Part shown: positions 3,182-52,289 of the stretch, piece after piece | How the letters are laid out: each line of letters starts with the position of its first letter | Position numbering within the stretch: position 1 is the first letter of the stretch | NCBI GenBank assembly: GCA_016183365.1 | Contig: JACPES010000003.1 | Span: 169,467-233,466, forward strand | Source: Candidatus Collierbacteria bacterium | GTDB taxonomy: Bacteria; Patescibacteriota; Microgenomatia; UBA1400; JACPES01 | DNA: 64,000 bases | Direction of reading: 5' to 3' | The notes under the pieces: generated by a model | Told to the model about the DNA's origin: nothing | Seen by the model: only the letters and a program-made list of their open reading frames with translations | Databases searched by the model: none | Made by a program: the position numbers and the translations under genes

Positions 3182-3195
3182 AAAGAAAGGAAGAA

Positions 3196-3597
3196 ATGAA
3201 CAATAAACAGGAAACAAGAAACAGGAATCAAGAAACAATGATAGTCAGGGCGGAATCGTCCGTTATCAGACAATCGGTCAGAAAAATGCAGTTGGTGACC
3301 AGAGCCATATCCGGAATGACCCCGGCTACGGCAGTAGAAGTTTTACAGTTTATGGATAAAAAAGCGGCTGAACCGATTGGAAAAACTATCCAACAAGCTA
3401 TAGCCAACGCGACTAATAATTTGAAAATCGCCGAAAGTTCTTTTGGCCGATTGTTGGTTGAACTGCAAGAGGGGCCGACGATGAAACGGTGGCGGATGGG
3501 AAGCCGGGGCCGGACCAAGCCGATTTTGAAAAGGACGGGGAAAATAGTGGTAAAGCTGTTTGTAAAAATCAATGAACAAAAAACAAAAAACAAATAA
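3196..3597 (+). CDS. rplV: 50S ribosomal protein L22. The alternative start at 3238 removes an A/C-repeat-encoded N-terminal extension.
   Basis: MIVRAESSVIRQSVRKMQLVTRAISGM... is L22-like. The N- and C-terminal extensions are encoded by the ACAAAGAACAAA repeat. Confidence 0.85.
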   Translation: MNNKQETRNRNQETMIVRAESSVIRQSVRKMQLVTRAISGMTPATAVEVLQFMDKKAAEPIGKTIQQAIANATNNLKIAESSFGRLLVELQEGPTMKRWRMGSRGRTKPILKRTGKIVVKLFVKINEQKTKNK

Positions 3598-3653
3598 CAA
3601 TAAACAAAGAACAAAGAAACAAAAACGCTCTTTGCTTTTTGATTTTTAATTTT

Positions 3654-4930: not shown

Positions 4931-5196
4931 AAATACTTACCGGAGTGGTTATCAGCCCCAAAATGGAAAAATCAGCCACAGTCAGGGTGGATAGAATGTG
5001 GCGTCACCCAATTTATAAGAAGATGATGAAAAGATCTAAAAAGTTTTTGGTCCACGCGGAAAGTCCGGTTAAAGCCGGTGAAATTGTCAAAATAGCCGAG
5101 ATTAAGCCTATGAGTAAGTTAAAGAGGTGGAGGATAATAGAAGAAGCAAAAAACAAAGAACAAAAAACAAAGAACAAAAAACAAGAGAGAAAATGA
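4927..5196 (+). CDS. rpsQ: 30S ribosomal protein S17, with a Lys-rich C-terminal tail encoded by the A/C repeat.
   Basis: LTGVVISPKMEKSATVRVDRMWRHPIYKK is S17-like. The tail EAKNKEQKTKNKKQERK comes from the repeat. Confidence 0.85.
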   Translation: MKILTGVVISPKMEKSATVRVDRMWRHPIYKKMMKRSKKFLVHAESPVKAGEIVKIAEIKPMSKLKRWRIIEEAKNKEQKTKNKKQERK

Positions 5197-5567
5197 TTCA
5201 ATTAAGGACAGTTTTAACCGTAGCAGATAATACCGGAGCCAGAAAATTGCGGGTTTATATGATTCATGGAGGATCTAAGCGCAAATTTGGCAATATTGGA
5301 GATTTTGTGGGAGCCTCGGTTATCGAGGCGATTCCGGAATCGCAATTTCCGGCCGGAACTAAAGTTAAGGCAGTCATAGTCAGAACCAGACATCCATTGC
5401 GCCGCCGAGATGGATCAAGAATTCGTTTTGACGATAACGCCGGGATTATTTTGGAAAGTTCCGAAAGCAAAAATCCGGCCGGGAGCAGGGTTTTCGGGCC
5501 CATTGCCCGGGAAGTGAAAGAGGCGGGATTCACAAAAATCGCGTCCCTGGCGGAAGAGGTGGTATAG
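5193..5567 (+). CDS. rplN: 50S ribosomal protein L14
   Basis: MIQLRTVLTVADNTGARKLRVYMIHGG. Its ATGA start overlaps the S17 stop. Confidence 0.9.
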   Translation: MIQLRTVLTVADNTGARKLRVYMIHGGSKRKFGNIGDFVGASVIEAIPESQFPAGTKVKAVIVRTRHPLRRRDGSRIRFDDNAGIILESSESKNPAGSRVFGPIAREVKEAGFTKIASLAEEVV

Positions 5568-9156: not shown

Positions 9157-9420
9157 ATGTCGGTTTTAATTCATGAGCCGGTGGCAGTGGTAGCGGTATT
9201 TAAGAATGGCCGGGTGAAGCCCGTAGTGTTTCGATGGAAGGACAAGAAAATTTCCATCGAGAGCGTTTCTTTTATGTGGCAAACAACGCAGGGAAAAGAA
9301 CATTTTCTTCACTTCACTGTTATTGCTTCTCAAACATTATACGAATTGCTGTTTAATATTTCATCAATGGTATGGAATCTGGAACGGGTTGAGACAAACA
9401 TCGGAATTTCTACTATATAA
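9157..9420 (+). CDS. Hypothetical 87 aa protein.
   Basis: An ORF preceded by TTGACA-N18-TAAAAAT. I recognise no family. Its position between rplO and dinB is unexpected. Confidence 0.35.
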   Translation: MSVLIHEPVAVVAVFKNGRVKPVVFRWKDKKISIESVSFMWQTTQGKEHFLHFTVIASQTLYELLFNISSMVWNLERVETNIGISTI

Positions 9421-9450
9421 AATGTTATATAACATTTTATATAAAGTAGC
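9408..9450. repeat. Near-perfect palindrome of about 40 bp centred on AAAATGTTATATAACATTTT (copy 1).
   Basis: The sequence ctactatataaaatgttatataacattttatataaagtag is read directly. A second copy lies at 48601-48640. Confidence 0.8.
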
Positions 9451-13773: not shown

Positions 13774-13810
13774 CTGGGATATGAAACGAAGGTGGTTTTA
13801 AAAACAAGTC

Positions 13811-13838
13811 TTGACAAGCCGGTTATTGTGTGTACAAT
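13811..13838 (+). promoter_or_regulatory. Strong sigma70-type promoter: TTGACA, 16 nt spacer, then TACAAT.
   Basis: The sequence ttgacaagccggttattgtgtgtacaat lies just upstream of the antitoxin ATG at 13846. Confidence 0.6.
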
Positions 13839-13845
13839 TGGACAC

Positions 13846-14151
13846 ATGAATATTCAAACTCAATTGGAGGACTACCATAATTTGACTACATGGCTTTATT
13901 CTTGGGGAAAGGAGCCACAGAAATCGCGTCGGGTTCAATTGAAAATGCCGGCGGCAATAGTGGAGATGTTGGATAAAAAGTTCCCTAAAATTAATAGGAG
14001 CAGGCTGTTGACTCAAGCTGTTGTAGAATTGTTAATCAGGAAAACCAGGGCGGACAGACCGGATTTGGAACAATGGCTGGCAGCGGAGCAAGATGACTTA
14101 GACGAAATGTGGAGTTATCTTAAATTCCGTGATAAAAAACAGAAAATATAA
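13846..14151 (+). CDS. Ribbon-helix-helix (CopG-like) antitoxin.
   Basis: VQLKMPAAIVEMLDKKFPKINRSRLLTQAVVELL shows a beta-alpha-alpha RHH pattern. It overlaps the downstream toxin gene. Confidence 0.55.
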   Translation: MNIQTQLEDYHNLTTWLYSWGKEPQKSRRVQLKMPAAIVEMLDKKFPKINRSRLLTQAVVELLIRKTRADRPDLEQWLAAEQDDLDEMWSYLKFRDKKQKI

Positions 14152-14476
14152 GATTGGGGAGATTTATTTGGTTCGTTTCCATCCTGCCGCTGGCGCGGAA
14201 TTAAAACGTTATCGGCCTGCGGCAATTATTTCCGGGAAAATAAATGGTGCCGATCCCCGATTTTCATTGATTGCTCCGTTAACTACAGGCGGAATGATTA
14301 ACAGGAACTACGAAATGATGATAAAGCGTCGAAATGATTTAGCTAAAGATTCGACGCTATTGGTTTGGTATTTAAGAACGGTTGATATCAGGAGAATTGG
14401 GGAGAGAATTGCTGAACTAAATCAGTCTGAAGTTAAAGTTATGAAACGGAAGCTTAAAAATTTGCTGGATTTCTAG
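14129..14476 (+). CDS. MazF/PemK-family mRNA interferase toxin.
   Basis: GEIYLVRFHPAAGAELKRYRPAAIIS ... LIAPLTTG matches the MazF GDIxxVDFDPxxGxExxxxRPAVVxS ... CxPxTT signature. Confidence 0.75.
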   Translation: MIKNRKYKIGEIYLVRFHPAAGAELKRYRPAAIISGKINGADPRFSLIAPLTTGGMINRNYEMMIKRRNDLAKDSTLLVWYLRTVDIRRIGERIAELNQSEVKVMKRKLKNLLDF

Positions 14477-14488
14477 AGATAAAAATTT

Positions 14489-16392
14489 TCAACCGGTGAG
14501 GAGGTGAGACAGGATTTCGGAAGGGAGACGGACGCGGCCGAATTGAGCCAGGCGTTTTTTGCCCTTTTTTTGTTTTTTTAATAATTTATCTTTCCGGGTT
14601 TGGTCTCCGCCGTAAAGCTTGGCGGTAACGTCTTTTCTCAACGCCGGTTTGGTTTCGCGGGCAATTATCTCTGCACCAATAGCGGCTTGGATGGGGACGG
14701 CGAATTGTTGGGAAGGCATCAACTCCTTTAGTTTTTCCACCATTTGTTTGCCGATTTGGGTGGTTTTGGACTTAACGATTATCCGGGACAAAGATTCGGC
14801 CGGTTCGTGGTTTAATAATATTGTCAGTTTGACTGCTTCAACCGGTTCAAGACCAATAATATCGTAGTCCATGGTGGCAAATCCCCGGGAAGCCGATTTA
14901 ACTTCATCAAACATGCCGCTGACCAATTCAGCCAGAGGAATAATGTAGGTCAGTTGGGCCCGGTTGCCGACAAAATTGGTATTGAGATATTTTCCGCGCC
15001 GGCTTTCGGCGATTTGCATGAGAGACCCTAGATATTCCTGAGGCGTAAAAATCATAGTCTTGGTCATTGGTTCTTTTACCTGGACAATCCTTGACGGATC
15101 GGGAAAATCGTTGGCGTTTTTAATAGTTAATGTCTGGCCGTCGGTGGTTTGGGCTGAATATTCGACGGTCGGCAAGGTCATAATAGTCGGCAAGCCAAAT
15201 TCTTTTTCCAGTCTTTCTCTAGTGATCTCAAGATGAAACAAGCCCAGGAAACCGCATTGCAGGCCGGGGCCTAAAACTTGAGAGAATATTTGTCGTGACG
15301 ATAGGCTGGCATCGGATAGTTTCAATTTTTCAAATCCTTCCAAAAACCTTTTAAAATCTTCCCCTTCGTCCGGATATAAATCAGCATATAAACTGGGTTT
15401 GGGCTCTCGATAGCCCGACAGTGGAACTAAAGAATTGAGAATAGGAAAGACGGTAATGGTGTCCCCGGCTTTGACCTTGCGGATATCTTTAAGGCCGGTA
15501 GCGATATAACCGACTTGGCCTGTCTCTAATCTATCTATTTGAGTTCTCTTTGGCGTAAAAATACCGATTTCTTTAGGCAGAAAATTCTGACGGAAGGCCA
15601 TTAGCGATAGTTTCTCACTGGCTGCAAGTTCCCCGTCGACAATTCTGACGAAGGCTATAACCCCCAAATGTTGGTCGTAAGTCGAATTAAAAATTAATCC
15701 CCGCAGGGGTAAATTTTGATTCCCTTTTGGGGCAGGTAATTCGGTTATTATCCGTTGGATTAAGTTTTCTACGCCCTGGCCGGTTTTAGCGGAAATCAGC
15801 GAGACCTCATTTTCTTTAAATCCAAACGCATTGTTTAGTTCAGTTAGTACTTCCGGGACATTGGCATTGGAAAGGTCGATTTTATTAATTACCGGAATTA
15901 AATACAGTTTTTGGGCCAGTGCCCGTTGAGCGTGAGCCAAAGTTTGGGCCTGAATTCCTTGAGTGGCATCTATTAATAGTATGGCGCCTTCGCAAGCCGC
16001 CAGACTCCTGTCGACTTCGTAGGCAAAATCGACGTGGCCGGGAGTGTCGATGAGATTCAGAATAAAATATGACGATAGATGGTTGAAGGTAGAAGATGGT
16101 GGTTGAGGATGGAGGATAGATGGTAGACGGTTTTCTATTTTCGATTTTCTATCTTCTACCACTATATTCAATCTTCTATCTTCTATCGTCTTGTTTTTCC
16201 ATTTCATCGTCACCGGCGCCAAACTGATAGTCACTCCGCGTTCGCGTTCGATGGGATTGGAGTCCAAAATTTGTTCCCGCATCTGCCTTTTTTCGACCGT
16301 GCCGGTAAATTCCATCAGCCTGTCTGATAATGTCGACTTTCCGTGGTCAACATGAGCAATTATTGCGAAATTTCTGATATTTATTGAAGTCA
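14489..16392 (-). CDS. lepA: Elongation factor 4 (LepA), with an in-frame insertion of about 35 aa in the G domain. The start is probably a GTG near 16392.
   Basis: NFAIIAHVDHGKSTLSDRL, DTPGHVDFAYEV, and the C-terminal LepA domain. The ORF track extends upstream to 16501. Confidence 0.85.
16081..16200. repeat. Inverted-repeat-bounded low-complexity element of about 120 bp, in-frame inside lepA.
   Basis: The termini are gacgatagatgg... and ...ttctatcttctatcgtc, with internal gatagaagat/atcttctatc repeats. It encodes IVVEDRKSKIENRLPSILHPQPPSSTFNHLSSY, which is absent from canonical LepA. Confidence 0.6.
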
Positions 16393-16416
16393 CGAAGATA
16401 TTATATGTTACGCGAG

Positions 16417-16680
16417 TTATTTTCGGTATAACTGACTGTGGGTGCCGAGGACTTCGAAATAAGCAATTCCTGACGAAATTTCTCGAAAAATTGCCCGCCA
16501 ATCACCGCTGATATTAATACTTCTGCAGCCAAAATATTTTCCGATAAGAGCATGATTATTAAGAAGAGGGTGGAATTGATTTCTCAAAAATTGTTCTAGA
16601 CGCTTGTTGAATGCCGATTTTATTTTAGAAGGCGCTTTAGCATATTGTTTACCGAAAGTCCGGCTGAACTTTGCTTTCAT
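16417..16680 (-). CDS. RelE/ParE (YafQ-like) toxin.
   Basis: MKAKFSRTFGKQYAKAPSKIKSAFNKRLEQFLRNQFHPLLNNHALIGKYFGCRSINISGDWRAIF matches the RelE family pattern. Confidence 0.65.
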   Translation of the reverse strand: MKAKFSRTFGKQYAKAPSKIKSAFNKRLEQFLRNQFHPLLNNHALIGKYFGCRSINISGDWRAIFREISSGIAYFEVLGTHSQLYRK

Positions 16681-16685
16681 AATTA

Positions 16686-16970
16686 TTATTCCGTCTGTTT
16701 TTCCAGCCAAGCAATAGCATCAGCGGCGTTACTGAAAGCCGGAGATGTTCGTCCGGTTTTTCTATCGATCTCGGATTCTTTTAAAGCCTTGATCAAATAT
16801 TCGCTAGGTTCTTCCGGGACCGCGCTGAAAAATACAGATTTAGTCCGCGCTAATTGTTTGAGGTAAGCATTAACTAAAGAGCTTAAGCTAAAGCCCAAAT
16901 CAGCCGCAATTTTTTGGACCTGAGCTTTAAGGTCGGGATCGGTCTTGATAGTCATAACAGCGGTATTCAT
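16686..16970 (-). CDS. RelB/DinJ-family antitoxin.
   Basis: MTIKTDPDLKAQVQKIAADLGFSLSSLVNAYLKQLARTKSV is DinJ-like. It lies directly upstream of the RelE toxin. Confidence 0.65.
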   Translation of the reverse strand: MNTAVMTIKTDPDLKAQVQKIAADLGFSLSSLVNAYLKQLARTKSVFFSAVPEEPSEYLIKALKESEIDRKTGRTSPAFSNAADAIAWLEKQTE

Positions 16971-16989
16971 AATATAAATAGTATATACA

Positions 16990-17025
16990 AAGATAGTATT
17001 TTGTCAATACAATAGAAATCAGCAG
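16990..17025 (-). promoter_or_regulatory. Promoter on the minus strand (TTGACA, 16 nt spacer, TATACT) for the RelB-RelE operon.
   Basis: The minus strand reads ttgacaaaatactatctttgtatatact. Confidence 0.5.
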
Positions 17026-17045
17026 CAACTTCTCTATTGGCCATC

Positions 17046-17105
17046 TTATGATTTCAATTATTTTCAAGCAAAGCTTGAACCTTCTCTGCAGGAAAATAAT
17101 TGAAG
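17046..17105. repeat. Hairpin repeat with 13 bp arms TTCAATTATTTTC / GAAAATAATTGAA around a 28 nt loop (copy 1).
   Basis: Read directly. Related copies lie at 17466-17495 (arms only) and 48665-48719 (similar loop). Confidence 0.75.
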
Positions 17106-17194
17106 TAGATATAATGTTTGACATAAATTGAGCGTGCCAGATTAATTGATGACTTACAGAATATTCTCAAGACTTAACATTTCTTATTAAGGTG

Positions 17195-17218
17195 AAATGA
17201 TTCGAATCATTTAACCCA
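17195..17218. repeat. Palindrome AAATGATTCGAATCATTT (family copy 1).
   Basis: Read directly. Related copies lie at 36256-36279 and 43578-43603. Confidence 0.75.
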
Positions 17219-17274
17219 TCTTATTCATTTTCTTTTGACGTTAATTTAACTTCAATAAAATATAAAGCCGCGAA

Positions 17275-17335
17275 ATTTCTGATATTTGTTGAAGTCACGA
17301 AGATATTATATGTTACGCGATTTATTTTCTAAACT
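17275..17335. repeat. Duplicate of about 58 bp of the lepA promoter plus its first codons.
   Basis: gcgaaatttctgatatttgttgaagtcacgaagatattatatgttacgcgatttattttc matches 16364-16420 at all but two positions. Confidence 0.8.
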
Positions 17336-17465
17336 CTGGACAATTTAATGAGTCCTAAAATATCCAGATGATCTGATTCGCGTTGCCACATAAGCATTGT
17401 TTTTGTTCCTATAAAGATTATTGTCTCACATAAAAGATTAAAAGATCTATACTATTGCGAATTAA

Positions 17466-17495
17466 TTACTTCAATTATTTAAATAATTGAAGTGG
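17466..17495. repeat. Hairpin repeat, arms-only copy: cttcaattatttaaataattgaag.
   Basis: Read directly. Confidence 0.7.
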
Positions 17496-17622
17496 ATATT
17501 TTTATACGGATCGAGTGCATCGGTTTGAGTGGTGGCTCGCAAGATATTCTTTAAAAAAAATCAGCCGGAAGAACTTCATGAAGTTATCTTAACATTGTGC
17601 CGACTTTGAGCATGGTCAGCAA

Positions 17623-18042
17623 TTAATTCGAAAACACCACTAACTGCAATAATTTATCGAAACTAACAGAAAACTGCTCGAAGATATCGAGCCGACCCAA
17701 TAATAGTATCGAATCTTGAGAATGGACGAAATAACTTCTGACTTCAATCTCACGATTGTCGATCATTAACTTTATTTTTCCGGGCGAAGCCAGCAGGGCT
17801 TGTTGGCCAATTCCATAGAGTTTGGTTTTGATATTAGATTCATATTTAATTCCCAGTCTATTAGCTAAAGAAATCGGCAACATGGTGACATCGGCGCCAC
17901 TGTCGATTAAAAACCATAAGTGTTGCCAGCCCCACGAGGCTCTAACTGGAATTAATGCCAGGGGATTAAATATCCGACCTAAATCAATCTGTTTGTATTG
18001 ATAGGGAAAAGTAGGCACTGACTTGGCCATATTTTTCGACAA
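17623..18042 (-). CDS. Retropepsin-like (clan AA) aspartic protease, single domain.
   Basis: LIDSGADVTML shows the D-S/T-G-A active-site motif; the 139 aa size fits a homodimeric retropepsin fold. Confidence 0.7.
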   Translation of the reverse strand: MSKNMAKSVPTFPYQYKQIDLGRIFNPLALIPVRASWGWQHLWFLIDSGADVTMLPISLANRLGIKYESNIKTKLYGIGQQALLASPGKIKLMIDNREIEVRSYFVHSQDSILLLGRLDIFEQFSVSFDKLLQLVVFSN

Positions 18043-18205
18043 ATCCGATAGCTGTTTTTTGAGGCGGAACGGCTTTTCTTTTCAAATCTTTAAACAGCAA
18101 ATCAATGTTTTTAGCCTGAGAATAAACTTTGCGTCCGGTCTTGCTGGTTGCCACCCACTTGCCGCCGAATTTTTTCTGAAGCTTAAGATAAATGTCTGTT
18201 TTCAT
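17984..18205 (-). CDS. Small 74 aa protein with a GKWVA motif (DUF5678-like). It overlaps the protease gene.
   Basis: MKTDIYLKLQKKFGGKWVATSKTGRKVY... The ORF track's upstream extension (to 18280) lacks coding character. Confidence 0.4.
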   Translation of the reverse strand: MKTDIYLKLQKKFGGKWVATSKTGRKVYSQAKNIDLLFKDLKRKAVPPQKTAIGFVEKYGQVSAYFSLSIQTD

Positions 18206-18303
18206 GATTTGAGTATAAGCTTTGGCTTTAACGAAAGTCAATGGTTGGCAACTAACTCGTTTGGGAAAGGCACTTCGCATAGATTATAAACAGGAGCCCT
18301 GGC

Positions 18304-36367: not shown

Positions 36368-36410
36368 CCTGCAAACAGCTTGCGCTCTCGCAGGGGGGTT
36401 TAGTAACTCT
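36368..36410 (+). terminator. Hairpin cccctgc...gcagggg with a flanking T-rich run. It may be a terminator for the glycosylation cluster.
   Basis: A 7 bp GC stem with a 17 nt loop; T-runs on both sides. Confidence 0.3.
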
Positions 36411-42989: not shown

Positions 42990-43397
42990 ATGCCAACAAA
43001 TAAATATTATTATGCTATCGGCCGGAGAAAAACCGCGACGGTGATTATTAAAATGTTTAAGGGGAAACAGGAAGAACAGCAGATAACCGTTAACGGTCTT
43101 CCGATTAATGTTTATTGGCCATCCGCAACCGCTAAAACAGTCTATCAGGAGCCCTTTAAAACGACCAATACTTTAAGTAGGTTTACCGCTACGGCTACGG
43201 CTAAGGGTTCCGGCAAAAACGGTCAATTGGGGGCTTTTGTGTTGGCGGCCGCCAGAGCCTTGGAAAAATTTGATCCCAAATTAAGATCGGTTTTGAAAAA
43301 GCGGGGACTTTTAACCCGTGATCAGCGCCAGAAGGAAAGACGGAAACCCGGCTTGGCCCACAAAGCAAGGGCTAAGAAACAATCTCCAAAGCGATAA
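42990..43397 (+). CDS. rpsI: 30S ribosomal protein S9.
   Basis: YYAIGRRKTATVII...; the C-terminus ends GLAHKARAKKQSPKR. Confidence 0.9.
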   Translation: MPTNKYYYAIGRRKTATVIIKMFKGKQEEQQITVNGLPINVYWPSATAKTVYQEPFKTTNTLSRFTATATAKGSGKNGQLGAFVLAAARALEKFDPKLRSVLKKRGLLTRDQRQKERRKPGLAHKARAKKQSPKR

Positions 43398-43530
43398 AGA
43401 AATCCTTAAGTACTTTGGTAGCGTGAATTTGAATTTACGTCTGTCGCCGCCCCGTAGTTGCGCTTTTGGTTTGCGTGCACGTAGAGCACGAAACCAAATA
43501 AGCGTACTACGGGGCGAGGGCTAAGAAACA
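43398..43530. repeat. Hairpin-containing element flanked by imperfect direct repeats of about 30 nt that copy the rpsI 3' end.
   Basis: The left repeat is agggctaagaaacaatctccaaagcgataa and the right is agggctaagaaacagtccccgaaacgttaa. Between them lies the near-perfect hairpin ccccgtagttgcgcttttggtttgcgtgcacgtagagcacgaaaccaaataagcgtactacgggg. Confidence 0.6.
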
Positions 43531-43577
43531 GTCCCCGAAACGTTAAGGTAATCAGTTTTGCCGTCAAAAATAATTTG

Positions 43578-43603
43578 TAAAATGATTTAAATCATTTTAC
43601 AGT
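43578..43603. repeat. Perfect palindrome GTAAAATGATTTAAATCATTTTAC (family copy 3), between the converging rpsI and gltX.
   Basis: Read directly. Confidence 0.75.
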
Positions 43604-48600: not shown

Positions 48601-48640
48601 AAATATAAAATGTTATATAACATTTTATATCAAGAGTTAA
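48601..48640. repeat. Palindrome AAAATGTTATATAACATTTTATAT (copy 2), directly upstream of the DUF1653 gene.
   Basis: A 24 nt segment identical to the copy at 9419-9446. Confidence 0.8.
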
Positions 48641-48664: not shown

Positions 48665-48719
48665 AACTTCAATTATTTTCTTGCGGAGCAGGATCAGGCT
48701 CTGCCTGAAAATAATTGAA
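48665..48719. repeat. Hairpin repeat TTCAATTATTTTC ... GAAAATAATTGAA (copy 3).
   Basis: Same arms as the copy at 17046-17105, and the loops share ...tctgc.gg. Confidence 0.75.
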
Positions 48720-48781
48720 GTATATTCAAGATTCTTATTTCAGACTGCCGATCGGCAGTCGCTAATAAAAGTATTTGGTTT

Positions 48782-50457: not shown

Positions 50458-51843
50458 ATGACATTTCAGTTGCCGAGTGAAGTAATCAACATTCTGCAGG
50501 GGTTAAAAAAATCAGGATTTGATGGTTTTGTGGTGGGTGGAGCGGTGCGGGATTTATTGACTAAGCGTCAAGTTGATGATTGGGATTTTACCACCAACGC
50601 AACTCCTGTCGAGATTCAAAAAGTGTTTCCCGGAAGTTTTTATGACAATCAATTCGGGACAGTGGGAATCCCCCGGGATGGCAATATTTTTGAAATCACG
50701 ACTTTCAGGACGGAACATGGATATTCTGACAAAAGACGGCCGGATAAGGTGGAGTGGGGAAAAAGTTTGGAAGAAGATTTAAGCCGGCGGGATTTTACGA
50801 TTAACGCCATGGCGCTACAAACAAAAAACAAGAAACAAAGAACAAAGAACGATGAATTAGAGGTAGAAATAATTGATCCATTTGGGGGACAAAAAGATTT
50901 GGAGAAGAAAATTATTAAGGCGGTAGGGGATCCAAACCAAAGATTCGGCGAGGACGCTTTGAGAATGATGCGGGCTATTCGCTTGGGAGCCGAATTGGGA
51001 TTTGGAATTGAAGGTCAAACTTTAGAAGCCATTAAGAAAAATAAAGATTTAATCAGGGAGATATCTGGGGAAAGAATTAGGGATGAATTTTTAAAGATTG
51101 TCGGCAGTCCTTATCCGGCCGATGGAGTTAAACTGTTATATAGCACCGGGTTGTTAGAAATTATCTTACCGGAATTGGTTAAGGGGGCAGGAGTGCCTCA
51201 AGGCGGCCATCATATTAATGACGTTTTTACCCACTGTATCGAAAGTTTAAGATTTTGTCCCAGTCAAGACGCGTGGGTGAGGTTGGCGACTTTGCTTCAT
51301 GATGTTGGTAAACCGGACACGATGATGATGCGTGATGGTAAACCGACATTTTATAACCATGAAGTGGTTGGAGCCAGGTTAGTTAAAGTAATTTCCGATA
51401 GGCTACGTTTACCGCGGGAAAAAAAAGACTTCTTATGGAAAATGGTTCGTTGGCATATGTTCGCTTACAACCCGGAAATGACAGATTCCGCCATTCGCCG
51501 GTTTATGCGCCGGGTGGGAAAAGACGATATTCCGAAGATGATCGAACTGCGGGTTGGCGACAGAAAAGGCGGCGGCAGCAGGGAAACCAGTTGGAGGCTG
51601 GAAGAATTGAAACGCCGGATTGCCGGGTTAATGAACGATCCGTTAACCGTGGCCGATCTTAAGATTGACGGATTTGATGTAATGAAAACACTTAATATTA
51701 AACCCGGGCCGGTAATCGGCAAAGTCTTAAATTTTCTATTCGAGGAAGTTTTGGAAGATCCTAACAAAAATACCTCGGAATATTTACTGTCTAGAATTGC
51801 GGTGGCGGTACAATCTAAAGATAACCAGCAAAGCCCCGATTGA
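50458..51843 (+). CDS. cca: CCA-adding tRNA nucleotidyltransferase with an HD domain.
   Basis: GGAVRDLL, an HD motif (LLHDVGK). It contains the in-frame A/C repeat QTKNKKQRTKND. Confidence 0.8.
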   Translation: MTFQLPSEVINILQGLKKSGFDGFVVGGAVRDLLTKRQVDDWDFTTNATPVEIQKVFPGSFYDNQFGTVGIPRDGNIFEITTFRTEHGYSDKRRPDKVEWGKSLEEDLSRRDFTINAMALQTKNKKQRTKNDELEVEIIDPFGGQKDLEKKIIKAVGDPNQRFGEDALRMMRAIRLGAELGFGIEGQTLEAIKKNKDLIREISGERIRDEFLKIVGSPYPADGVKLLYSTGLLEIILPELVKGAGVPQGGHHINDVFTHCIESLRFCPSQDAWVRLATLLHDVGKPDTMMMRDGKPTFYNHEVVGARLVKVISDRLRLPREKKDFLWKMVRWHMFAYNPEMTDSAIRRFMRRVGKDDIPKMIELRVGDRKGGGSRETSWRLEELKRRIAGLMNDPLTVADLKIDGFDVMKTLNIKPGPVIGKVLNFLFEEVLEDPNKNTSEYLLSRIAVAVQSKDNQQSPD

Positions 51844-52194: not shown

Positions 52195-52289
52195 TTGCCA
52201 ATTATGCCATAAAAGAATGAATGAAAATATTATGGCGGAGTTGCAATATATCGATATTTTAAAATATCGATATATTTATATAGCGAGAG

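Follow-up and report, generated by a model that had tools for sequence, protein, structure and literature searches.

Short palindromes dispersed over bacterial genomes have been described in several settings. The repetitive extragenic palindromes and bacterial interspersed mosaic elements (REP/BIME) of Enterobacteria and Pseudomonas are mobilized by REP-associated tyrosine transposases (RAYT), the regulators TrpR and HisR/YerC act through palindromic operators, the parS, matS and Noc-binding site (NBS) sequences are paired with the proteins ParB, MatP and Noc, inverted pairs of DNA-uptake sequences form repeat-derived terminators in Neisseria and Haemophilus, and the pdif modules of Acinetobacter plasmids are built on Xer sites. 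Here we analyze a 64,000-nucleotide stretch (the window; contig JACPES010000003.1, positions 169,467 to 233,466) of a Candidatus Collierbacteria genome, a member of the Candidate Phyla Radiation (CPR), and in particular a 650-base non-coding island within it that the original prediction had described as packed with three families of dispersed repeats. CPR bacteria are uncultivated, and their regulatory DNA and chromosome organization are almost unknown. The explanation that we favor, and in which we place middling confidence, combines an island at an insertion hotspot, a first palindrome family (family A, ACTTCAATTATTTAAATAATTGAAGT) that is a candidate protein site and a second one (family B) that forms a terminator or insulator hairpin.

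Functional statements throughout are drawn from the sequence. The window was compared with the syntenic relatives R1 (LepA 91% identical; loci L122-124 and L127-128), R2 (loci L129 and L130; its S9 protein falls in an 89% cluster, that of the window being MBI2309746.1) and L125 and L126 (LepA 84-85% identical), and near-identical short contigs of the window are present in the Logan assemblies SRR121134xx. The palindrome census scanned one genome per species, and its copy numbers are lower bounds; organism names of matching metagenome-assembled genomes (MAGs) are the labels of their records.

Comparison with known repeat systems

The palindromes of the window and its relatives resemble REP/BIME elements in being short (26-40 nt) and extragenic, in forming mosaics of several families, in varying between relatives and in lying often at gene ends. 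They differ from them in that their arms are perfect, their copies number tens rather than hundreds, and neither a GTAG end nor, in the Pfam lists of the fetched loci, a RAYT (Y1/HUH) gene accompanies them; moreover, one copy lies in coding sequence, and the associated gene encodes a TrpR fold rather than an HUH transposase. The likeness to TrpR-family operators resides in a palindrome of ~20-26 bp that, in two other genomes (L115 and L108), overlaps the promoter of the gene for the regulator itself and in a candidate protein that scores above the Pfam Trp_repressor cut-off. However, this candidate has 146 aa, as opposed to fewer than 100 for TrpR and HisR, and the A sites are identical instead of degenerate, mostly away from promoters and beside functionally unrelated genes. 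With parS, matS and NBS they share the occurrence of tens of near-identical palindromes, independent of gene position, tolerated in coding sequence and conserved across distant lineages, but the candidate protein of family A is unrelated to ParB, MatP and Noc.

Two further systems can be compared. As in repeat-derived terminators, the B stem is repeated and lies past stop codons between A-rich and T-rich flanks; unlike inverted uptake sequences, the half-sites studied here are never single, the B stems are A+T-rich and weak, and no link to DNA uptake is known. The pdif modules share a palindrome architecture of about 10-6-10, a location beside small toxin-antitoxin cassettes and the bracketing of some genes by two copies (a radical-SAM gene by family E in L009, the TrpR-fold gene by family A), whereas the cassettes of the window lack sites on both sides, their palindromes are fully symmetric and no recombinase is linked to them. 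Cassettes of the integron attC or pdif type were ruled out, given that relBE, the protease gene, PemK and the higBA pair of R1 each have a palindrome on one side at most and that no integrase was seen.

Distribution of family A palindromes

The repeats claimed in the original prediction are present, and far beyond chance by both shuffling and expected counts. The exact 11-mer half-site of family A occurs seven times in the window, every time within an inverted pair, and allowing up to one mismatch yields 19 matches against 7.0 expected, a number that none of 100 shuffles reached. The A-type sites of the window are as follows.

17046-17106, minus relative to the second hairpin copy: A hairpin copy 1, with 13-nt arms (17053-17065 and 17092-17104) around a 26-nt, G+C-richer inner stem-loop; -20.1 kcal/mol, z = -4.0
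17468-17493, unstranded: canonical 26-bp perfect palindrome, arms only, 129 nt downstream of the protease stop codon; identical 26-mers occur in other genomes
48666-48721, plus strand: A hairpin copy 2, between recJ and the DUF1653 gene; -30.8 kcal/mol, z = -8.3; degenerate in R2, absent in R1
63306-63327, unstranded: A-type site within alaS that agrees at 21 of 22 bases and is read as S-I-I-Q-I-I-E; its lone mismatch turns an in-frame TAA into CAA

The last of these had escaped the original prediction. A fifth copy lies ~650 nt before the start of the window in the same strain, which brings the count to at least five copies in ~65 kb, and R1 and R2 carry one copy each. Beyond these relatives, the zero-gap palindrome was found in at least eight blocks of the Collierbacteria MAG JACRNH01, at least four of the Roizmanbacteria MAG JACOYT01, at least two each of CAYYYW01 and CAZHVF01 (labelled Gammaproteobacteria, a label that is unverified) and at least one each of a Peregrinibacteria and a Peribacteria MAG. 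The remaining hits, among the matches listed, are single, gapped and located in A+T-rich genomes, as expected by chance. Density is about one copy per 13-20 kb, and the two positions that flank the central 22-mer are uniform within each genome, changing symmetrically between lineages (AC/GT, GC/GC, GA/TC).

The setting of 23 sites (13 between co-directional, six between convergent and four between divergent genes, all of them functionally unrelated) shows no preference for gene starts or ends, and by position family A is thus neither a promoter element nor a terminator. The perfect 26-mer holds a stop codon in all three frames of both strands, which alone would explain its confinement to intergenic DNA. 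The unrelated flanking genes and the six convergent sites of 23 rule out a coherent regulon; there is a mild, non-significant excess of DNA repair genes nearby (recJ, uvrC, two HhH-GPD glycosylase genes that are not orthologues, a spore-photoproduct-lyase-like gene and mazG). A role as DNA-uptake sequence was discarded because half-sites are never single, and so was a phage origin of either family, since viral scans returned only single gapped A matches and two B matches, the chance level. Full-text literature searches yielded no description of such repeats in CPR bacteria. Finally, ~15 different perfect palindromes with arms of 10 nt or longer are present in the window, against 0-1 in shuffled sequence. 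The island therefore does not stand out in this genome and, contrary to the supposition that repeats this short are unusual in streamlined genomes, palindromes of this kind are common in these CPR genomes.

A candidate protein for family A

Among the three guesses advanced for these repeats (protein-binding sites, small RNA genes and elements resembling miniature inverted-repeat transposable elements, MITEs), the first is the best supported for family A, by virtue of the alaS copy and of a bracketed TrpR-fold gene. Around its A-type site, the alaS product aligns without gaps to Escherichia coli alanyl-tRNA synthetase (isiiqiiekitg in the query, rtliqavakvtg in E. coli), and there is no insertion at this place relative to the solved synthetase sequences. 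Lying gap-free in conserved coding sequence, with a sole mismatch that avoids a stop codon, this copy is not an insertion and would be implausible as a terminator.

In L115 (Roizmanbacteria) and L108 (CAZHVF01), a gene for a 146-aa TrpR-fold protein is bracketed by A-type palindromes, one located 8-9 nt past its stop codon and the other abutting its ATG. The two proteins are 42% identical, and the family assignment comes from Pfam Trp_repressor (E = 8e-8, 32.7 bits against a cut-off of 27), the score being far under the NCBIfam TrpR cut-off. A promoter scan identified TTGACA-17-AATAAT and CTGACA-17-AATAAT in these loci, with the -10 hexamer within the palindrome and 6 nt before the ATG. Such an overlap of promoter and palindrome is the usual layout for an autoregulated repressor on a leaderless gene. 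Proteins of the TrpR family bind palindromes of 20 bp (PMC9413887).

Family A is probably the site of a dimeric helix-turn-helix protein, protein binding being the best reading, and the candidate binder, by an indirect link, would be the 146-aa TrpR-fold protein, whose gene is bracketed by A-type palindromes in two other genomes only. At the tens of other A sites binding would be position-independent, with an architectural, roadblock or insulator effect, and not that of a classical operator. The 26-bp palindrome does not differ between MAGs whose labels place them in several CPR phyla and, with the candidate protein, forms a protein-DNA pair open to testing. A broader proposal, which we consider unlikely, is that family A marks a CPR-wide, autoregulated TrpR-fold protein acting on tens of identical 26-bp palindromes, coding ones included, in order to structure the chromosome or insulate transcription, with site and protein having co-evolved across CPR phyla. 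If true, family A would be the mark of an architectural DNA-binding system that extends over the CPR and is comparable to matS/MatP, parS/ParB or NBS/Noc.

The hairpin variant of family A

The hairpin variant is an A site with an inner stem-loop of 26-30 nt at its center. The two window copies stand in opposite orientation (87% identity as reverse complement, 76% in direct comparison), a point overlooked at first, and the variant is known from four loci: these two, L055 and R2. The L055 hairpin, located downstream of uvrC in another Collierbacteria MAG and thus at a non-orthologous place, is 98% identical to window copy 2, and the degenerate R2 hairpin, at the orthologous site, is 93% identical while its flanks reach ~65-80%. 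This bears out the earlier suggestion that the hairpin copies are homologous elements and not chance inverted repeats. The covariation proposed as a check was looked for across the four copies and is lacking: no base pair is altered on both sides, and the three one-sided changes, which all keep G-U pairing on one strand, do not amount to a significant trend. A covariance model added no members to these four from 333 kb of related sequence, and metagenome and viral scans found no hairpin copies, the former returning unrelated hairpins only. Rfam gave no match in the window at the gathering score, with noise alone at permissive thresholds, and no tRNA was found.

The inner 16-mer of the A hairpin recurs in in-frame hairpins of glycosyltransferase genes. 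In the window, two genes of the PMT_2 type carry perfect in-frame palindromes of 32-52 nt (26770-26821, 26904-26935, 27222-27259, 31696-31731 and 32205-32238). Such palindromes are also present in the R1, L125 and L126 orthologues, where paired changes in the arms preserve their perfection (CCCGG/CCGGG versus CCTGG/CCAGG).

Family B palindromes

The B 18-mer, with up to three mismatches, has four matches in the window against 0.14 expected. Its copies are listed below.

17191-17216, unstranded: B palindrome GGTGAAATGATTCGAATCATTTAACC, with one arm mismatch, 4 nt after the stop codon of the lepA remnant open reading frame (ORF); kept at the orthologous place of R1 (L122 9784-9809)
36255-36280, unstranded: B copy between a DUF2298 gene and secY; conserved in R1
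43576-43601, unstranded: B-like copy on the gltX stop codon, beside the duplicated rpsI 3' end; absent there in R1 and R2

All six informative copies lie 0-80 nt past a stop codon, four of them within 5 nt, and at five of six sites the transcribed side of the weak stem bears a U-rich tail; two orthologous sites are shared by the window and R1. Family B is most likely a repeated, A+T-rich terminator-type hairpin that would end or insulate transcripts past stop codons, and the island copy would end an orphan transcript, driven by the duplicated lepA promoter through the 25-aa remnant ORF, before relBE. Family A shows inconsistent positions and tails for a terminator, and the scan tool listed no palindrome of either family as an intrinsic terminator.

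Next to the secY copy, a conserved ORF of 14-20 codons (MKKL.L.F.KDKLN) runs on the strand opposite to secY (window 36283-36345, minus strand; L127 1075-1140), its end being 1-23 nt short of the B palindrome, and a G+C-rich stem with a T-run is found at 36377-36410. The region upstream of secY may hold a small gene or produce an antisense transcript.

The island and the murJ-lepA locus

The island is flanked by relB (16686-16970, minus strand) and by the gene for a retropepsin-like aspartyl protease (17623-18042, minus strand) and, as originally reported, contains no convincing ORF, none exceeding 65 aa. A Pfam search of the window confirmed RelB, the YafQ/RelE-type toxin, Asp_protease_2 and MurJ. 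The features around the island, other than the palindromes listed above, are the following.

16365-16424, minus strand: functional lepA start and first copy of the direct repeat, with GTG at 16393 and TATAAT 6-7 nt upstream; a 634-aa NCBI Collierbacteria protein, 100% identical, starts there
16417-16970, minus strand: relB (16686-16970) and YafQ/RelE-type toxin gene (16417-16710), by Pfam and synteny; cassette absent from all four relatives
16980-17007, minus strand: relBE promoter-like site, TTGACA-16-TATACT, with 11 of 12 matches, ending 9 nt before the relB ATG
17221-17333, minus strand: displaced lepA 5' remnant, with TTTAGA-17-TATAAT (17305-17333), GTG at 17298 and ten lepA codons in a 25-aa ORF; second copy of the direct repeat at 17270-17329
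17623-18280, minus strand: DUF5678-like small gene (17984-18280) and aspartyl protease gene (17623-18042), by Pfam; the relatives lack the pair at this locus, and the pair recurs elsewhere

The murJ-lepA gap is found in different states among the relatives. In L125 and L126 the murJ stop codon overlaps the lepA start (GTGA and ATGA, respectively), which would be the ancestral state. In R1 the two genes are 296 nt apart, and the gap comprises a 7-codon lepA remnant, a B palindrome, ~170 nt and a new lepA start after a TATAAT box. In the window the gap measures 1.9 kb and is filled by the DUF5678/aspartyl protease pair, the island and relBE. Since window positions 17189-17283 are homologous to the R1 segment that holds B, the B palindrome and the split lepA are older than the divergence of the window and R1. 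The lepA remnant of the window bears the new-type start and -10 box, and the 60-nt direct repeat that it forms with the working copy (16365-16424 and 17270-17329) is 97% identical. Hence, the lepA duplicate that had been counted as a third repeat family is real as a copy, but it is a local, displaced 5' remnant of lepA and not a dispersed family.

A plausible sequence of events can be proposed. A first insertion would have split lepA after ~7-10 codons, bringing with it the B palindrome and a new lepA promoter and start of leaderless type. This lineage would then have gained relBE, between B and lepA, and the DUF5678/protease cassette, between murJ and the remnant; in the simplest reading, the latter probably entered by recombination through homology with the lepA 5' end, leaving the 60-nt duplicate of the lepA start and two alternative murJ-lepA spacers standing in tandem. 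Judged by these comparisons, the 650-base island is a lineage-specific insertion scar at a hotspot for accessory cassettes, a nature that the original prediction had missed; it is ordinary in itself and would have no function of its own beyond that of non-coding filler. A replication origin was ruled out, as GC skew keeps its sign there.

Toxin-antitoxin and other small cassettes also differ between the window and R1 at further intergenic sites. Only the window has a pair formed by a PemK/MazF toxin gene and a small gene upstream of it (13792-14476), and because this pair is inserted just downstream of lepA, the latter has toxin-antitoxin cassettes on both sides. R1, in turn, is alone in carrying higBA (upstream of secY), an AbiE pair, a holin-like gene (in the rpsI-gltX gap) and an adh_short gene. 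The locus thus shows small toxin-antitoxin cassettes landing between core genes, with gene ends duplicated in such a way that the core gene stays intact. The pair of small gene and protease gene is found in other contexts as well, in one of them twice beside HicAB, and annotation of the cassettes for defense systems gave only weak PADLOC matches for the protease, to the candidate defense proteins PDC-M52B and PDC-M08B.

Several minor features of this region deserve mention. The protease module consists of a small gene (73-98 aa) overlapping the retropepsin-like protease gene (L185 877-2335, L186 2215-2794, L187 1291-1698 and window 17623-18280), and it is often located next to toxin-antitoxin genes and carried by very short contigs. 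The starts of lepA, relB and the lepA remnant (16393-16405, 16970-16985 and 17298-17310) are each preceded by a TATAAT-like -10 box that ends 6-9 nt upstream, and the TrpR-fold genes of L115 and L108 are arranged likewise, suggesting that these genomes commonly produce mRNAs that are leaderless or nearly so. The last ten codons and stop codon of rpsI are present twice at 43365-43553, 80% identical with synonymous differences and separated by a long-hairpin element of ~110 nt that is missing from R1 and R2. After lepA, rpsI is the second gene with one end duplicated around an insertion. Within lepA itself, the GTPase domain (16060-16200) harbors a lineage-variable in-frame insertion that includes a 24-nt tandem duplication (16135-16185), and LepA length among relatives varies there from 594 to 634 aa.

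Alternative explanations

Several observations weigh against the reading of family A as a protein-binding site, and some of them favor its main rival, namely that families A, B, E and F are REP/BIME-like selfish elements copied at the DNA level into permissive intergenic DNA, with template switching keeping their symmetry and any binding or hairpin effect being incidental. Neither the window nor the eight fetched JACRNH01 blocks yielded a homologue of the TrpR-fold protein, and the position of many A sites is not one where a promoter would be expected, so that A cannot be a classical operator. Sites also turn over quickly: R1, R2 and the window differ in their palindromes at equivalent intergenic positions, as seen upstream of aspS (a C-like palindrome and A in R1, A and F in R2) and in the recJ-DUF1653 gap (neither A hairpin nor F in R1, a hairpin in R2). 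In L064 and L077, A fills 34-nt gaps between adjacent genes and, taken together, such turnover and gap filling are more easily reconciled with mobile insertion than with slow in-place evolution. The flanks past the 26-mer, moreover, tend to extend the palindrome (P ~0.012), an extension for which a protein site has no need. Selfish spread would also account for the mosaics formed by the families (A beside E in L009, L061 and L067; A, linker and F in the window and R2; A, E and F in L028), for the inner 16-mer common to the A hairpin and the glycosyltransferase genes and for the short-read (Logan) contigs that stop exactly at A, B and E copies, palindromes being a cause of breaks in short-read assemblies of CPR genomes. 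Conversely, no RAYT or other transposase was found near the copies in the fetched loci, there is neither a conserved end of GTAG type nor a target-site duplication, and the sharing of 22-26 identical nucleotides by MAGs whose labels assign them to different CPR phyla calls for either sequence-specific selection or horizontal spread. The bracketed TrpR-fold gene is left without explanation, and the alaS copy is no insertion. We regard purely selfish elements as a doubtful account, and it seems reasonable to describe family A as a dispersed, putatively protein-binding palindrome with REP/BIME-like traits.

A second possibility is that the palindromes act at the RNA level only, as terminators or stem-loops stabilizing 3' ends, bidirectional by symmetry, with the hairpin variant as a stronger version. 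Relative to shuffled controls all of them fold well (z between -2.5 and -8.3), a stop codon is 0-45 nt away from many of the A copies and most of the B copies, a U-rich tail is usual at B, and the one-sided hairpin changes that keep G-U pairing (three of three) point in the same direction, though not significantly. For family A, however, four of 23 sites are in divergent promoter regions, one is in alaS and one covers the promoter and start codon of a gene, while its U-tracts are inconsistent, that of L064 being on the wrong side; family F has a T-run before the stem and an A-run after it, and hairpin function by itself would not keep 26 nt identical between genomes. As a general explanation this is decidedly improbable, but for B alone it is part of the account we prefer, against which it must be noted that the stems of B are of low stability (-8 to -14 kcal/mol) and that the island copy has a poor U-tail on the minus strand. 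Least probable of all, to the point that we give it very little credence, is the proposal that the hairpin elements are small RNA genes or MITEs. They do measure 54-60 nt with terminal inverted repeats of 13-15 nt, their copies are dispersed over non-orthologous loci, and a promoter-like TATAAT lies just downstream of hairpin copy 1. Yet nothing credible emerged from Rfam, only four loci are known in 333 kb of related sequence with none in metagenome or viral scans, and compensated changes are lacking, all of which speaks against RNA genes. Neither target-site duplications (at four hairpin and ~20 palindrome flanks) nor a transposase nor a consistent promoter or terminator around the copies was seen, and with one A copy in situ in conserved coding sequence, MITEs in the strict sense are likewise not sustained.

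Other palindromes and repeats

Family F is represented in the window next to hairpin copy 2.

48740-48763, unstranded: family F palindrome, core AGACTGCCGATCGGCAGTC; the linker to the A hairpin also recurs in R2

Family E (ATATCGATATTTTAAAATATCGATAT) occurs in the window (52245-52276), in L009 (5673-5698 and 6709-6738, two copies that bracket a radical-SAM gene similar to spore-photoproduct lyase), in L061 (1866-1899) and in L067 (5319-5344). In three loci E sits 11-23 nt from an A copy, and the spacing of 11, 18 and 23 nt rules out a fixed A+E composite promoter.

A further palindrome of 28-30 nt, ATATAAAATGT-N6-ACATTTTATAT, lies upstream of dinB (9414-9443) and of the DUF1653 gene beside recJ (48603-48630). 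It is kept at the orthologous places of R1 and R2, the central 6 nt alone varying (L122 17130-17159; L127 15776-15795 and 17091-17110; L129 18218-18237), and looks like an SOS/LexA-type operator of this lineage. Lastly, runs resembling the heptamer AAACAAR are found at or near the ends of several genes, ribosomal ones included (3191-3241, 3567-3652, 5137-5215, 35600-35671 and 50805-50883), and probably encode low-complexity extensions rich in Lys, Asn and Gln.

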